Positions 2 to 5,971 of a stretch of DNA of 7,041 bases are shown piece by piece. Under the pieces are notes generated by a model. The model made no database searches and had not been told where the DNA came from. It worked only from the letters and a program-made list of their open reading frames with translations. Source of the stretch: a virus (taxonomy: Duplodnaviria; Heunggongvirae; Uroviricota; Caudoviricetes); the IMG/VR virus record IMGVR_UViG_2534682175_000009, one strand, 5' to 3'. How positions within the stretch are numbered: position 1 is the stretch's first letter; the number at the start of each line of letters is the position of its first letter. Position numbers and translations under genes: made by a program.

Positions 2-1627
2 ACCGCAGAAGTCACCGCAGACAGCGGGGAATACCAGGTGCTGGCGCGCTGGGACACGCCGAAGGTGGTGAAGGGCGTGAGCTTCCTGCTTCGCCTGACC
101 GTGGCAGCGGATGACGGCCGTGAGCGGCTGGTCAGCACGGCCCGGACGACGGAAACCACTTACCGCTTCACACAACTGGCTCTGGGGAACTACAGGCTGA
201 CAGTCCGAGCAGTAAATGCGTGGGGGCAGCAGGGCGATCCGGCGTCGGTATCGTTCCGGATTGCCGCACCGGCAGCGCCGTCGCGGATTGAGCTGACGCC
301 GGGCTATTTTCAGATAACCGCCACGCCGCATCTTGCGGTTTATGACCCGACGGTACAGTTTGAGTTCTGGTTCTCGGAAAAACGGATTGCGGATATCAGG
401 CAGGTTGAAACCAGCGCGCGTTATCTTGGTACGGCACTGTACTGGATAGCCGCCAGTATCAATATCAAACCGGGCCATGATTATTATTTTTACGTTCGCA
501 GTGTGAACACCGTTGGCAAATCGGCATTCGTGGAGGCTGTCGGTCAGCCGAGTGATGATGCATCAGGCTATCTGGATTTTTTCAAAGGCGAGATAGGGAA
601 AACCCATCTGGCTCAGGAGCTGTGGACGCAGATTGATAACGGTCAGCTTGCGCCTGACCTGACTGAAATCAGGACGTCCATAACGGATGTCAGCAATGAA
701 ATAACACAGACCGTCAATAAGAAACTGGAAGACCAGAGTGCAGCGATCCAGCAGATACAGAAGGTTCAGGTTGATACAAATAATAACCTGAACAGCATGT
801 GGGCAGTGAAGCTGCAGCAGATGCAGGACGGACGCCTTTATATTGCGGGTATCGGTGCCGGTATTGAGAACACCCCTGACGGCATGCAGAGTCAGGTGCT
901 GCTGGCAGCAGACAGGATTGCGATGATTAATCCTGCGAATGGCAACACAAAGCCGATGTTTGTTGGTCAGGGCGATCAGATATTCATGAATGAAGTGTTC
1001 CTGAAACGCCTGACGGCCCCCACCATTACCAGCGGCGGTAATCCTCCGGCATTTTCCCTGACATCAGACGGGAGACTGACGGCGAAAAATGCGGATATCA
1101 GTGGCAGTGTGAATGCGAACTCAGGAACGCTCAACAATGTCACGATTAACCAGAACTGTACGATTAAGGGCATGCTGGAGGCGACCCAGGTCAGAGGAGA
1201 TTTCGTTAAAGCTGTATCAAAAGCCTTCCCGAAAAAAGTCGGTACGTGGGGTAACACGGAAACACCAAACGGTACGGTTACAGTCACCATCAGCGATGAT
1301 CATAACTTTGACCGCCAGATTATTATTCCGCCCATTATTTTTAACGGTATAGCGTATGACGATCCGGGGAGCGGAAATAACCCAGGAGGCACGCGATACA
1401 CGGGTTATGGTTTTGAAGTTCGCAAAAACGGCGTATTAATCGCATCCAGAGAAACTAAAGGGGCCATTCCCGGTAGTTACAGTGCGGTTATTGATATGCC
1501 GAGTGGCAGGGGAAGCGTCACTCTGGAGTTTAAGATTTTCCAGAAAGGCAATCAGGGGGCAGGCAATATCACCGACTGTACGGTGATTGTGACCAAAAAA
1601 GCTGCTTCCGGCATCAGTATTCGTTGA
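2..1627 (+). CDS. J: Central tail fibre / tip attachment protein J, C-terminal part (5'-truncated by window start)
   Basis: Frame is open from base 2 ([12 protein letters not shown]... precedes the GTG the ORF track uses at 38), so this is the interior of a longer gene. The translation matches my recollection of lambda gpJ, including a fibronectin-III-like stretch ([22 protein letters not shown]) and the [18 protein letters not shown] region. Ends at TGA 1625-1627. Gene order J-lom-stf-tfa is the lambda arrangement. Confidence 0.88.
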
Positions 1628-2349: not shown

Positions 2350-2360
2350 GTGGGGTGAAT

Positions 2361-5300
2361 ATGGCAGTAAAGATTTCAGGTGTACTGAAAGACGGCACAG
2401 GAAAACCAGTACAGAACTGCACAATCCAGCTGAAAGCAAAACGTAACAGCACCACGGTGGTGGTGAACACGCTGGCCTCAGAAAATCCGGATGAAGCCGG
2501 GCGTTACAGCATGGACGTTGAGTACGGTCAGTACAGCGTTATTCTGTTGGTGGAAGGATTCCCGCCGTCACATGCCGGGACCATCACCGTGTATGAAGAT
2601 TCTCAACCCGGTACGCTGAATGATTTTCTCGGTGCCATGACGGAGGATGATGCCCGTCCGGAGGCACTGCGCCGTTTTGAACTGATGGTGGAAGAGGTGG
2701 CGCGTAACGCGTCCGTAGTGGCACAGAACACGGCAGCCGCGAAGAAGTCAGCCGGCGATGCCAGCACATCTGCCCGTGAGGCGGCAACCCATGCGACTGA
2801 TGCTGCAGATTCAGCACGTGCAGCCAGCACGTCAGCCGGACAGGCCGCTTCGTCGGCTCAGTCAGCGTCTTCCAGCGCAGGAACGGCATCAACAAAGGCC
2901 ACTGAAGCCTCAAAAAGTGCTGCCGCTGCAGAGTCCTCAAAAAGCGTGGCAGCTACCAGTGCCGGTGCCGCGAAAACGTCAGAAACGAATGCTGCAGCGT
3001 CACAACAATCAGCAGCCACTTCTGCATCCACCGCGACTACGAAAGCGTCAGAAGCTGCCACCTCAGCCCGGGATGCGTCGGCTTCAAAAGAGGCGGCAAA
3101 ATCATCAGAAACGAACGCATCCTCGAGCGCCAGTAGCGCAGCTTCCTCGGCAACGGCGGCAGCAAATTCCGCGAAGGCGGCAAAAACGTCCGAGACGAAC
3201 GCCAGGTCTTCTGAGACGGCAGCGGGACAGAGCGCCTCAGCTGCGGCAGGCTCAAAAACAGCGGCTGCGTCGTCTGCCAGTGCCGCGTCAACAAGTGCCG
3301 GGCAGGCCTCAGCCAGTGCCACCGCCGCCGGAAAATCGGCAGAAAGCGCCGCATCATCCGCTTCAACAGCCACAACGAAGGCTGGCGAAGCCACTGAGCA
3401 GGCCACGGCAGCAGCGAGGTCAGCTTCCGCAGCGAAGACATCCGAAACGAACGCGAAAGCGTCGGAAACCAGCGCAGAATCCTCAAAAACGGCAGCGGCA
3501 TCGTCCGCCAGTTCGGCGGCGTCATCGGCCTCATCGGCGTCTGCTTCAAAAGATGAGGCGACCAGACAAGCGTCAGCAGCGAAGGGCAGCGCCACGACGG
3601 CATCCACGAAGGCAACAGAGGCTGCTGGCAGTGCGACGGCGGCAGCACAGAGCAAGAGTACGGCAGAATCCGCAGCAACGCGCGCCGAGACAGCAGCAAA
3701 ACGGGCAGAGGATATTGCATCCGCTGTGGCGCTTGAGGATGCGAGCACGACGAAAAAGGGGATAGTACAGCTCAGTAGTGCGACTAACAGCACTTCCGAG
3801 TCACTGGCGGCAACACCAAAAGCCGTTAAGGCCGCGTATGACCTGGCTAACGGGAAATACACCGCACAGGATGCAACGACAGCACAGAAAGGGATAATCC
3901 AGCTAAGCAGCGCGACCAACAGCACGTCTGAAACGCTGGCGGCAACGCCAAAGGCAGTAAAAGCAGCCAATGACAATGCTGAGAAACGTCTGCAGAAAGA
4001 TCAGAACGGTGCGGATATCCCTGGCAAAGACACCTTTACGAAAAATATTGGTGCCTGCCGTGCCTTTGGTGGGTCAGTAAGCACAACAACAGGAAACTGG
4101 ACGACTGCACAGTTTATCGAGTGGCTGGATTCTCAGGGAGCATTTAACCATCCCTACTGGATGTGCAAGGGTTCCTGGTCTTATGGCAATAATAAAATCA
4201 TTACTGATACTGACTGCGGTAATATTCATCTCGCCGGAGCTGTCATTGAAGTAATGGGGATAAAGTCAGCGATGACGATCCGCATTACCACTCCGACCAC
4301 CTCCACTGGTGGTGGAACAACTAACGCCCAGTTTACCTATATTAATCACGGAACAGATTATTCACCTGGCTGGCGAAGGGACTATAACTCCAGAAATAAG
4401 CCAACGGCATCAGAGATCGGGGCGTTACCGTCAGGTGGAACAGCAGTATCATCAGTTAATCTGTCTTCAAAAGGTCGGGTAACCGCGCTGACAGACAATA
4501 CGCAGGGGGCAACAGGTCTTGAGTTATACGAGGTGTATAACAACGGATATCCAACAGCGTATGGAAATATCATTCACCTGAAAGGGATGACAGCCGTTGG
4601 CGAAGGTGAGTTACTCATCGGCTGGAGTGGTACAAGCGGTGCTCATGCTCCGGCATTTATTCGTTCACGACGGGATACGACCGACGCAAACTGGTCGCCG
4701 TGGGCGCAGCTTTACACCTCGGCTCATCCTCCTGCAGAGTTTTATCCAGTCGGTGCACCAATCCCGTGGCCATCAGATAACGTTCCGTCTGGTTATGCCC
4801 TGATGCAGGGGCAGACTTTTGACAAATCTGCATACCCGAAACTTGCAGCCGCTTATCCGTCAGGCGTGATCCCTGATATGCGTAGCTGGACGATTAAGGG
4901 CAAGCCTGCCAGTGGTCGGGCCGTATTGTCTCAGGAACAGGACGGCATTAAATCGCACACCCACAGCGCCAGCGTATCCAGTACGGATTTGGGGACGAAA
5001 ACCACATCGTCGTTTGATTACGGCACTAAATCCACGAATAACACCGGGGCGCATACGCACAGTGTGAGCGGTACAGCCGCAAGTGCCGGAAACCATACTC
5101 ATAGTGTCACAGGCGCATCAGCAGTCAGCCAGTGGTCACAAAATGGGTCAGTACATAAGGTTGTGTCTGCGGCCAGTGTGAATACAAGTGCTGCAGGAGC
5201 GCACACTCATAGTGTCAGCGGCACAGCTGCATCTGCAGGTGCTCACGCACATACTGTCGGTATTGGTGCTCATACGCACTCTGTTTCGATTGGCTCACAT

Positions 5301-5387
5301 GGACACACCATCACCGTTAACGCTGCGGGTAACGCGGAAAACACCGTCAAAAACATCGCATTTAACTACATTGTGAGGCTTGCATAA
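2361..5387 (+). CDS. stf: Side tail fibre protein Stf, intact full-length, mosaic
   Basis: The ORF track opens at GTG 2355, but the ATG at 2361 gives [26 protein letters not shown]..., the lambda Stf N-terminus as I recall it, and GGGGTG upstream serves as ribosome-binding site. The C-terminus (...[37 protein letters not shown]...[31 protein letters not shown]) also matches my recollection of lambda Stf. The middle part differs. Stop TAA 5385-5387. Confidence 0.92.
2740..3740 (+). repeat. Ala/Ser/Thr-rich degenerate repeat region encoding the Stf shaft
   Basis: About 330 codons made almost entirely of A/S/T/K/E/G with recurring motifs: AAKTSETNA three times (about nt 2967, 3176, 3430) plus [11 protein letters not shown], and TSAGQAS/SAAS blocks. 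The low complexity leaves two other frames stop-free here, one sense and one antisense. Confidence 0.8.
3756..3833 (+). repeat. Conserved tail-fibre linker motif, copy 1 ([26 protein letters not shown])
   Basis: Read directly from the stf translation. This motif is, to my knowledge, a conserved block shared among otherwise unrelated phage tail fibre genes. Confidence 0.75.
3888..3965 (+). repeat. Conserved tail-fibre linker motif, copy 2 ([26 protein letters not shown])
   Basis: Second copy 44 codons downstream of the first. The protein is nearly identical (one conservative I/V change and one S/T change), but the DNA differs at many third-codon positions (e.g. GTACAGCTCAGTAGTGCGACT vs ATCCAGCTAAGCAGCGCGACC). 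Confidence 0.75.
4950..5310 (+). repeat. His-x-His repeat array in the Stf C-terminal tip
   Basis: Recurring HxH motifs in Gly/Ser/Ala/Thr context: [73 protein letters not shown]. The sub-repeats are imperfect at the DNA level. Confidence 0.8.
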
Positions 5388-5971
5388 TGGCATTCAGAAT
5401 GAGTGAACAACCACGGACCATAAAAATTTATAATCTGCTGGCCGGAACTAATGAATTTATTGGTGAAGGTGATGCATATATTCCGCCTCATACAGGTCTG
5501 CCAGCAAACAGTACCGATATTGCACCGCCAGATATTCCGGCAGGCTTCGTGGCTGTTTTCAACAGTGATGAGGCATCGTGGCATCTCGTTGAAGACCATC
5601 GGGGTAAAACGGTTTATGACGTAGCGTCAGGGGACGCGTTATTTATTTCTGAACTCGGTCCGTTACCGGAAAATGTTACCTGGTTATCGCCGGAAGGGGA
5701 GTTTCAGAAGTGGAACGGCACAGCCTGGGTGAAAGATGCAGAAGCAGAAAAACTGTTCCGGATCCGGGAGGCGGAAGAAACAAAAAACAGCCTGATGCAG
5801 GTAGCCAGTGAGCATATAGCGCCACTTCAGGATGCTGTAGATCTGGAGATCGCAACGGAGGAAGAAACCTCATTGCTGGAAGCCTGGAAAAAATATCGGG
5901 TGTTGCTGAACCGTGTTAATACAACAACTGCACCGGATATTGAATGGCCAACAGTACCCATTATCGAATAG
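5387..5971 (+). CDS. tfa: Tail fibre assembly protein (chaperone) Tfa
   Basis: 194 codons. ATG 5387-5389 overlaps the stf TAA by one base (TAATG), and the GAGG 8-11 nt upstream can act as Shine-Dalgarno. The translation ([78 protein letters not shown]...) matches my recollection of lambda Tfa. Stop TAG 5969-5971. Confidence 0.92.

Follow-up and report, generated by a model that had tools for sequence, protein, structure and literature searches.

The side tail fibre gene and its surroundings

The window, by which we mean the whole stretch of 7,041 nt analysed here, contains the side tail fibre gene stf of a lambdoid prophage (Table 1). The gene order is J–lom–stf–tfa, as could be judged from the neighbouring open reading frames, which contain J C-terminal domains, Ail/Lom and Caudo_TAP, and the gene 3′ of tfa encodes a GGDEF protein according to Pfam. 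The stf product is a lambda-type side tail fibre. Pfam matches are phage_tail_N (PF08400, residues 3–136, E 5.3e-72), Phage_fiber_2 (twice) and Collar (residues 800–846). A PDB sequence search showed that successive segments match 9e7m, 5yvq, 8ju3 and 2xgf: residues 3–96 match 9e7m (lambda fibre N-terminus), residues 541–697 match 8ju3 (Mu S/S′, E 3.7e-68) and residues 796–1010 match 2xgf (E 4.6e-86). The C-terminus is of the lambda type as well, with a T4 gp37-like collar (PF07484), needle and tip followed by the gene of the Tfa chaperone.

For residues 690–802 the PDB sequence search gave no match, even at E 10. A Pfam match to Gp34_trimer stayed below threshold (20.3 bits, cut-off 27; residues 118–177 of the nt 3969–4754 query, approximately Stf residues 656–715). 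An AlphaFold2 monomer model of residues 455–800 (28-sequence alignment) was unusable with a mean pLDDT of 34.5 and a pTM of 0.32, and gave a weak hint of helices in each repeat unit.

Table 1. Positions of the features of stf and tfa in the window
Feature	Position (nt)	Strand	Description
stf, side tail fibre gene	2355–5387	+	ORF, 1010 codons plus stop; between lom and tfa, lambdoid prophage
Lambda-type (StfR-like) proximal segment	2355–3836	+	N-terminal attachment domain, Ala/Ser-rich shaft, motif copy 1
Motif copy 1 (K468–A494, SES variant)	3756–3836	+	First PF03406 core
Left crossover zone	3837–3895	+	59 nt: 17-codon spacer (3837–3887) plus first 8 nt of copy 2
Motif copy 2 (K512–A538)	3888–3968	+	Second PF03406 core; P2-type origin with other-type patch 3938–3963
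Conserved post-array (NGADIP) element	3969–4061	+	From protein comparison; common to P2, 186, PSP3, Mu and 2H10-type fibres
P2-type cassette, minimal extent	3896–4793	+	Copy 2, post-array element, Mu S′-like domain (residues 541–697), uncharacterised residues 698–795
Right crossover zone	4794–4993	+	Within collar domain region (Collar residues 800–846, nt 4752–4892); parental types about 96–98% identical
Lambda-type distal needle and receptor-binding tip	4994–5387	+	T4 gp37-like, HxH repeats; hypervariable at about 5072–5218
tfa, tail fibre assembly chaperone	5387–5971	+	Pfam Caudo_TAP, E 1.4e-43; lambda-type parent

The two motif copies as units of the Phage_fiber_2 repeat

Inspection of the sequence had suggested two near-identical motif copies 44 codons apart whose DNA differs mostly synonymously, and both observations are correct. 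The copies, of 27 codons each, are offset by exactly 44 codons (132 nt). They share 25 of 27 residues, the differences being V/I and S/T, and 62 of 81 bases; 15 codons differ synonymously only and two non-synonymously. An independent repeat search aligned 3736–3842 with 3868–3974 (74% identity, spacing 132). Tandem Repeats Finder did not report the 132-nt array in stf because the identity is below its score threshold.

The Stf protein matches the family PF03406 with 125.4 bits (curated gathering cut-off 22) in two stretches (E 5.9e-37), the best of which, residues 464–504, covers profile positions 1–41 of 42. Given that the profile matches both copies, their likeness is not due to chance. PF03406 is a tandem repeat of tail fibres with a period of approximately 40 residues; here the period is 44 residues, and the same period was found in 130 of 130 neighbouring copies among the homologues. 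The two motifs are therefore neighbouring units of the tandem repeat Phage_fiber_2, each made up of a 27-residue core that starts with KG(I/L/F) and a 17-residue spacer. In the trimeric fibre the repeat may form a small knob or joint.

The repeat is present in one to six copies in the fibres of lambda-like, P2-like, 186, PSP3, P1 and Mu phages, and in all these groups the array lies between the phage-specific proximal part and the exchangeable distal part of the fibre. The arrays of lambda Stf, P2 H, 186 K, PSP3 H, P1 S and Mu S have the same motif, period and position as that of stf, whose spacer is the commonest one among the database matches of the repeat; nothing essential differs besides the two units of stf compared with one to six in the relatives. 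One copy is found in lambda, 2H10, ev099, L-413C and StfR, two in the window and in 186, three in PSP3 and four in P2 and P2_2H4. The same distal module follows one or two copies after lambda-type N-termini and two to six copies after P2-type N-termini. The SES variant of the motif occurs mostly in lambda-type contexts.

Of 5,426 complete E. coli genomes 3,674 contain the motif, often in several places, and a literal text search of the literature for the motif string found no occurrence. The hits of an initial protein search with the motif region were for the most part fragments of 64–184 residues, many of them encoded on contigs a few hundred bases long; we used them for the spacing statistics, and they are unsuited to questions of gene architecture. 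A motif so widespread in E. coli, with many database entries being fragments from very short contigs, calls for caution in annotation and assembly.

The original prediction took the synonymous divergence between the copies as a sign of recombination. In every multi-copy array that we examined (P2, P2_2H4, PSP3 and 186) the copies are diverged as well, with 51–72 of 81 nt identical. Diverged DNA between the copies is thus normal in such arrays and is alone no proof of recombination, and we dropped synonymous divergence as non-diagnostic. In stf an identical codon is used at 10 of the 25 conserved residues, as compared to 8.5 ± 2.3 expected for independent draws from the gene's own codon usage.

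We also considered that the second unit arose by a recent tandem duplication within stf followed by fast synonymous divergence, for example through selection against identical repeats. The exact 132-nt register would agree with this, as would the changes in unit number seen in close relatives (see below). Against it, the synonymous sites between the copies are fully saturated (pS 0.81) at a dN of 0.034, and copy 2 is 93% identical to a P2-type copy, whereas copy 1 is 98% identical to the copy in other lambda-type genes. As the two copies have different nearest relatives, a recent origin from each other is impossible, and we regard this explanation as refuted and give it practically no probability.

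Two crossovers between lambda-type and P2-type fibre genes

For the comparison of both sides of the array we used as A-type the lambda-type stf genes L019 and L020 and as B-type the P2-type H genes L016 and L017 of E. coli prophages. The lambda-type genes compared were those of the O157:H7 and strain 8479 prophages and K-12 StfR. The H gene of L016 is cut by the contig end, and P2 baseplate genes are located upstream on the same 173-kb contig.

The lambda-type genes match the window with 94–98% identity up to and including copy 1. The segment 2355–3836 is 94–96% identical both to L019/L020 and to 2H10/ev099, and K-12 stfR is 95.2% identical over the BLAST alignment 2355–3842. Copy 1 is identical at 79 of 81 positions (98%) to L019/L020 and at 62–63 of 81 (75–78%) to L016/L017. 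Further downstream L019/L020 share 50–51 of 51 nt of the spacer and 72 of 81 nt of copy 2 with the window and give no match from 3981 to 4737. The P2-type genes behave in the opposite way. Upstream of 3736 they have no homology to the window (26% identity), and they match with 98–100% from the spacer on, extending about 0.9–1.1 kb past copy 2 (spacer 98%, 3896–4793 and 3969–4930 each 98–100%). Copy 2 is identical to them at 75 of 81 positions (93%), its 5′ half at 98–100%.

The identity comparison for breakpoints at the motif copies, which the original prediction had proposed, gave a maximum chi-square breakpoint after nt 3836 against both L016 and L017 (Fisher 3.5e-14 and 9e-13), these statistics being post hoc and based on two sequences per parental type. 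In a three-way comparison copy 1 has 19 A-type and 2 B-type informative sites, and copy 2 has 5 A-type and 10 B-type ones (p about 8e-4). Between the two parental types, 57–58 of 59 positions are identical in the crossover zone, 60–61 of 81 in copy 1 and 70 of 85 in copy 2, and within 3837–3895 the window matches both types alike at 98–100%. The crossover between the lambda-type and P2-type fibre genes sits in this 59-nt spacer zone. In copy 2 the informative sites follow the order BBBBB AAAA BBB A BB, so that this copy is a micro-mosaic (patch 3938–3963) and more than one event must have touched the array.

There is thus a recombination junction between the copies, as had been supposed, and it separates different nearest relatives; the synonymous divergence brought forward for it does not count. 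The duplication itself was not made by joining two single linkers. The motif belongs to a 44-residue tandem repeat of ancestral origin, arrays of three copies are present in both parental types, among them the H genes of L016/L017, and the crossover is in register. A first reading of ours, that both copies were inherited as one cassette, was built on P2 (about 78% identity throughout) and 500465-3 (79–85% throughout), with no change of identity between the copies, and was overturned by the close relatives of each side.

On the right side the window is B-type at 28 consecutive informative sites (4701–4793). In 4794–4993 the informative sites are few and mixed, and from 4994 on they are consistently A-type, the distal part being A-type at about 140 sites. 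The alignment 4738–5949, which includes tfa, is 96.6% identical to L019, as compared to 90.7% for L017 over 5250–5950, and the informative sites of tfa are predominantly A-type. For nt 5072–5218 no match was found in mEp460, ev099 and lambda. A second crossover lies in the collar domain at about 4794–4993. Both breakpoints, here and at 3837–3895, fall within a stretch shared by the two parental types, each of which has high identity to stf on one side.

As the second crossover is in the collar, the swapped piece is an internal cassette resembling Mu S′ (about 3866 to 4800–4990) and not the distal receptor-recognising module that had been proposed; the gp37-like receptor tip and tfa stay lambda-type. 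Likewise, the view that what follows copy 2 is not lambda Stf is right for residues 539–795, which have no lambda DNA match, and wrong for residues 796–1010, which are lambda/T4-gp37-like.

The cassette DNA is 74–80% identical to P2, P1 Sv′ and P7 (P2 alone 78–80%; P1 Sv′ 74% over window positions 3991–4720) and absent from lambda, StfR and L019/L020 in the DNA comparison. L016/L017 and, more distantly, P2 (NC_070905), Mu S′ (8ju3) and P1 Sv′ share with stf the spacer, the last motif copy, the NGADIP element, the S′-like domain and the collar. The P2-type H genes differ from stf in their N-terminus, which is the P2 baseplate-binding domain PF12571, and in having three motif copies. In Mu and P1 the module is part of an invertible segment with its own C-terminal receptor domain, which is missing in stf.

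The cassette is homologous to the variable part of the invertible fibre segments (S/S′, Sv/Sv′) of Mu, P1 and e14, as judged from 8ju3 and P1 Sv′; of the inversion machinery neither an invertase gene nor matching crossover sites were found in the window. Invertase-driven exchange was reportedly proposed for fibre evolution by Sandmeier in 1994, and a Din-family invertase (Gin/Cin/Pin) might have exchanged the distal module of stf at a fibre-gene crossover site. Invertase genes directly follow tfa in mEp460, 2H10 and Rac (pinR), and the cassette is similar to invertible segments (Sv′) of P1 and Mu. Moreover, a Mu-like crossover site is annotated in gene K of 186 (L007:2784–2809, encoding FVQNIGLKP) at the homologous FxxNIG position, which in stf is the end of the NGADIP element (4035–4061). 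The breakpoint at 3837–3895, however, is about 150–200 nt upstream of this position. Searching the window for the 186 site and for P1 cixL/cixR gave at best 15/26 or 13/20, none at the homologous position, and a junction within an extended near-identical stretch is the mark of homologous and not of site-specific exchange. With an invertase gene lacking in the window too, we judge this route highly unlikely.

Origin of the recombinant gene and its relatives

The mosaic very probably arose by a double crossover between a lambda-type stf gene (similar to StfR or the O157 prophage gene) and a P2-type H gene, in which the adjacent Phage_fiber_2 units served as recombination joint. The protein sequence of PF03406 is under very strong constraint, by which DNA stretches stay alike in otherwise unrelated fibre genes, and the array therefore acts as an in-frame site for homologous recombination. 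The left exchange would have taken place in register in the spacer between copies 1 and 2 and the right one in the conserved collar region, with the recombinant keeping one motif copy from each side. The lambda-type parent would have supplied the attachment domain, shaft, copy 1, receptor tip and tfa, and the P2-type parent copy 2, the NGADIP element, the Mu S′-like domain and about 100 further residues. RecA or a phage recombinase of the Red/Rad52 type may have carried out the exchange. No parental pair, i.e., both types in one genome, was found.

The cassette is 69–80% identical in P2, the Yersinia P2-like phages, PSP3, P1, P7 and D6, and the lambda-type carriers found are all at least 96.6% alike. 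From this cassette diversity, the one guide to direction that we have, the transfer probably went from the P2-type to the lambda-type. In the alternative orientation the window type could be older and the O157-type and P2-type genes recombinant, which needs two events instead of one. An ancient tandem repeat would then have descended vertically in stf, and the P2-type and O157-type genes would have acquired pieces of the window's lineage. The tandem array clearly goes back to the ancestor of the family, synonymous saturation between the copies fits an old duplication and a comparison of three types cannot strictly orient the event. Vertical descent, however, requires two exchanges that stopped independently of each other within one 59-nt zone. 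It also has to face the deep cassette diversity in the myovirus fibres (P2, PSP3, P1 and P7) next to uniform lambda-type carriers, and the fact that in StfR, 2H10 and L019 the lambda-type proximal part is joined to several other distal modules. We consider it unlikely and retain the double crossover.

It has also been considered that the array is maintained as a dedicated recombination adapter, the cores being kept apart synonymously, which limits self-deletion, and the spacer DNA being kept near-identical in unrelated phage families as a shared in-frame crossover site. The spacer zone is 97–98% identical between lambda-type and P2-type genes and the flanking cores 74–82%; pooled over non-independent pairs, synonymous differences in spacers and cores are 0.31 vs 0.54 within genes and 0.47 vs 0.65 between genes. 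Recent exchange alone could yield this pattern, and we think an adapter of this kind rather improbable.

The stf genes of mEp460, PhiR26_1, PhiR42_1, PhiR68_2 and SPF_0923 are the same recombinant allele as that of the window (97–98% identity overall for SPF_0923, mEp460 and the PhiR phages). The SPF_0923 gene is 97% identical to stf from end to end, that of mEp460 98% up to nt 5071, and those of PhiR26_1, PhiR68_2 and PhiR42_1 96.5–97.7% over 95% of the gene. Both motif copies were confirmed in mEp460, SPF_0923 and PhiR68_2, the three checked. In mEp460 copy 2 is unpatched B-type and the hypervariable tip is different. Uniform identity to a single known fibre gene had been named as an argument against a junction, and taken literally mEp460 and SPF_0923 provide it; as they carry the same recombinant allele, uniform identity to them does not discriminate.

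PhiR29_1 has the same stf allele minus exactly one 132-nt unit, with a chimeric copy whose crossover lies in CTGGCGGCAAC, and one-copy lambda-type proteins fall into two chimera classes. Among close relatives, unequal crossover continues to add units to the array and to remove them. Among the 5,426 E. coli genomes the end points of homology cluster at the ends of copy 1, copy 2 and the NGADIP element, and many E. coli genomes lose homology to the window at nt 4021. Rac StfR of K-12 and lambda Stf (P03764) resemble stf in the N-terminal domain, the Ala/Ser-rich shaft, a motif copy, the collar, the gp37-like tip and Tfa, and differ in having a single motif copy, a different module after it and no Mu S′-like cassette. 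StfR is 95% identical over 2355–3842 and 89% from nt 4711, lambda 78–87% in four blocks.

The horizontal passage of stf segments between unrelated phages has been called "well documented" (PMC3945230), and the same paper cites Haggard-Ljungquist et al. 1992, Sandmeier et al. 1992 and Sandmeier 1994 on the mosaic evolution of tail fibres. The module swap in stf is a clean but ordinary example of a phenomenon known since 1992; as the gene, the repeat family and the exchange of fibre modules are all known, it leaves the picture unchanged. As in the mosaic-fibre literature and in engineered lambda–P2 STF chimeras, distal fibre parts were exchanged between unrelated phages at conserved blocks, with the difference that the natural junction in stf is resolved to 59 nt in the array and looks homologous, and not invertase-driven as that literature prefers. 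Lambda-type and P2-type E. coli prophages currently share an internal fibre cassette at 98–100% DNA identity. An engineered fibre of lambda Stf (1–393) and P2 H (251–) is functional, and its fusion point, residue 393 of lambda Stf, directly follows the PF03406 motif (PMC11338833). Natural joints are places of fusion for engineered chimeric fibres that retarget phage particles (PMC11338833), and stf provides a natural, evidently functional in-frame junction pinned to the 59-nt spacer and a second one in the collar.

The tail fibre repeat and its copy number

Both motif copies of the side tail fibre gene stf are assigned by Pfam to PF03406 (Phage_fiber_2, 'phage tail fibre repeat'; 125 bits, cut-off 22), the repeat unit of 44 residues being made up of a 27-residue core and a 17-residue spacer. 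The original prediction had described two near-identical copies 44 codons apart whose DNA differs mostly synonymously, and this description is correct: the spacing is exactly 44 codons, 25/27 residues and 62/81 bases are identical, and 15 codons differ only synonymously and 2 non-synonymously. A repeat search pairs 3736-3842 with 3868-3974 (identity 74%, spacing 132). Synonymous sites are saturated (pS 0.81, dN 0.034), and the same codon is found at 10 of the 25 conserved residues, with 8.5 +/- 2.3 expected from independent codon draws.

This divergence had been read as evidence of recombination. Within-gene copies in P2, P2_2H4, PSP3 and 186 are identical at 51-72 of 81 nt and likewise differ mostly synonymously; since these arrays show the same pattern, the divergence is not diagnostic. 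Synonymously diverged copies are the normal state of the PF03406 repeat and by themselves no sign of recombination.

One motif copy is found in lambda, K-12 StfR, 2H10, ev099 and L-413C, two in the stf of the window and in 186, three in PSP3 and four in P2 (NC_070905) and P2_2H4. Among the 120 best database proteins with the same distal module, the period is 44 residues in 130/130 cases, and the arrays hold one copy (17 clusters) or two downstream of a lambda-type N-terminal part and two, three, five or six downstream of a P2-type one. In 120 database fragments the copies are spaced by 44 residues in 46 cases and by 56 residues in 25, and the spacer of the window stf is the commonest one. These motif-region matches (P0001-P0120) are mostly 'partial' proteins encoded on contigs just 200-550 bases long; apparently short-read assemblies break at this repeat, which is common to several prophages per genome.

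Breakpoints within stf

We compared stf with two groups of relatives. Group A holds two stf genes of lambda type, from E. coli O157:H7 H2495 and from strain 8479 (L019, L020), which have three motif copies and a distal module different from that of the window stf. Group B consists of two P2-type H genes from E. coli assemblies (L016, L017) with three motif copies each; L016 immediately follows the P2 baseplate genes V, W, J and I.

Features of the window and of Stf, with nucleotide identity to both groups and PDB sequence matches
Feature	Nucleotides	Strand	Stf residues	Group A	Group B	PDB match
tip protein J, C-terminal 529 codons	38-1627
lom	1697-2296
stf, side tail fibre gene, 1010 codons	2355-5387
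stf segment	2355-3755			94-96%
upstream of copy 1					26% (unrelated)
copy 1	3756-3836		K468-A494	79/81	75-78%
spacer				50-51/51	98%
copy 2	3888-3968		K512-A538	72/81	93%
stf segment	3969-4930				98-100%
stf segment	3981-4737			not alignable
segment to end of tfa	4738 to end of tfa			95-97%
tfa	5387-5971
MASE4-GGDEF protein gene, AT-rich	6045 to window end (7041)	-
lambda fibre N-terminus			3-96			9e7m, E 3.7e-52
Mu fibre S, one motif copy inside			491-570			5yvq, E 4.6e-16
Mu S/S' construct			541-697			8ju3, E 3.7e-68
T4 gp37 receptor-binding tip			796-1010			2xgf, E 4.6e-86

A maximum chi-square scan placed a change after nt 3836 in both group B comparisons, with 19/81 mismatches before and 17/1094 after this position in one (Fisher 3.5e-14) and 18/81 and 21/1194 in the other (9e-13). 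Three-way informative sites are A:B = 19:2 in copy 1, almost absent from 3837-3895, and 5:10 in copy 2, where they follow the order BBBBB AAAA BBB A BB (p about 8e-4). The parental types themselves are identical at 57-58/59 positions in 3837-3895, whereas copy 1 gives only 60-61/81 and copy 2 only 70/85. The repeat spacer therefore forms an island in which both types are nearly identical, and the left crossover took place there. The suspected junction between the copies is thus real, with its breakpoint after nt 3836 and relatives of both types, but the array itself is ancestral.

At five sites in a patch of copy 2 (3938-3963) the window and SPF_0923 agree with lambda-type copies, unlike the P2-type genes and mEp460, which points to another, very short conversion within the motif. 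Pooled synonymous differences were smaller in the 17-codon spacers than in the 27-codon cores, at 0.31 versus 0.54 within genes and 0.47 versus 0.65 between genes (window 3837-3887, P2, P2_2H4, PSP3, 186, 500465-3, L016 and L019); as the pairs are not independent, we attach no significance to the difference.

On the right side an unbroken run of 28 B-type informative sites ends at nt 4793. Sparse, mixed sites follow in 4794-4993, and from 4994 onwards, across the tip and tfa, the roughly 180 sites are A-type. Given this B-type run and the A-type sites beyond it, stf reads as an A-B-A structure. A lambda-type gene has probably had the matching stretch replaced by a P2-type cassette about 0.9-1.1 kb long, through a double crossover whose exchanges lie in the repeat spacer (left) and the collar region (right). 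The cassette DNA is 74-80% identical to P2, Yersinia P2-like phages and the Sv' segments of P1 and P7.

From the PDB matches together with the DNA comparison we conclude that the swapped piece is an internal module and that the lambda-type side contributed both the receptor tip, with its hypervariable stretch, and the chaperone gene. The original prediction of a swapped receptor-recognising end is therefore not borne out, and its interpretation is supported in part only. The PDB sequence search gave no solved relative for residues 698-795. In the gp37-like needle a hypervariable stretch (5072-5218, aa ~907-955) is unmatched in mEp460, ev099 and lambda and matched in SPF_0923 and 2H10; probably it is the receptor-contacting head of the tip. 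According to Ghosh et al. (PMC3368898) the PF03406 repeat is little understood; judging from their micrographs, it may be a small globular element that separates stalks. Its structural role is putative, the monomer structure model being of very low confidence (pLDDT 34.5).

Array variants, direction and mechanism

The motif region is present in 3,674 of 5,426 complete E. coli genomes, where homology to the window usually ends at the end of copy 1, of copy 2 or of the NGADIP element, a conserved element following the array (3969-4061). Among sequenced phages the same allele is carried by mEp460, the PhiR series and SPF_0923. PhiR29_1 has this allele (97%) minus exactly one 132-nt unit, and its single copy starts as copy 1 and ends as copy 2, the switch lying inside the shared CTGGCGGCAAC. 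The single copies of 2H10, ev099 and StfR are also chimeric with an earlier switch, and both chimera classes occur among one-copy lambda-type proteins. In the E. coli fibre P0182 (596 aa) the N-terminal domain (…TVYEDSQPG) runs directly into the repeat spacer, followed by the last motif copy; the entire Ala/Ser-rich shaft is deleted along with copy 1.

A transfer from P2-type to lambda-type genes is favoured, as an argument from sequence diversity and not as proof, because the carriers found among lambda-type genes are all at least 96.6% alike, against a deep diversity of the cassette in myovirus fibres, and because the lambda-type proximal part is also combined with several other distal modules. 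Exchange of the module by an invertase, an idea prominent in older literature (cited in PMC3945230), is disfavoured. The position that corresponds by homology to the annotated Mu-like crossover site of 186 gene K is 150-200 nt downstream of the breakpoint, and neither an invertase gene nor a crossover site of this type occurs in the window. A serine recombinase/invertase gene directly 3' of tfa is found in mEp460 (L003:5251-5841), 2H10 (L004:5533-6123) and Rac (pinR, L018:7085-7675); directly after tfa there is none in the window, L019 or L020.

Fibre-module exchange of this kind is already known. That unrelated phages exchange stf segments horizontally is described as well documented (PMC3945230, citing Montag 1989, Haggard-Ljungquist 1992, Sandmeier 1992, 1994), and an engineered lambda(1-393)-P2 H(251-) fibre, fused immediately 3' of the motif, works (PMC11338833); we checked the lambda residue numbering of this fusion point.

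Gene context

The window covers the right-hand end of a lambdoid prophage's tail-gene cluster, and E. coli chromosomes match it entirely at 97-98% identity. In E. coli AL.H8, a complete genome spanning the whole window, the arrangement is the same and adjoins torT; stf is annotated there as frameshifted/pseudogene (L015:8362-11387). The Stf protein (2355-5384) is matched by 51 different PHROG families, each over another segment, which reflects the strong mosaicism of fibre genes, with which family-level clustering copes poorly. Long ORFs of 335, 372 and 227 codons in other frames and on the opposite strand (2758-3976) overlap the Ala/Ser/Thr-rich shaft and are most likely by-products of its GC-rich repetitive codon composition, not genes. 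The MASE4 + GGDEF diguanylate cyclase gene, incomplete at the window end, has a GC content of 31% versus 52-55% in J, lom and stf. It appears to be prophage cargo placed where lambda has its b region, because in AL.H8 a 444-residue version is flanked by tfa of the same prophage and by torT.
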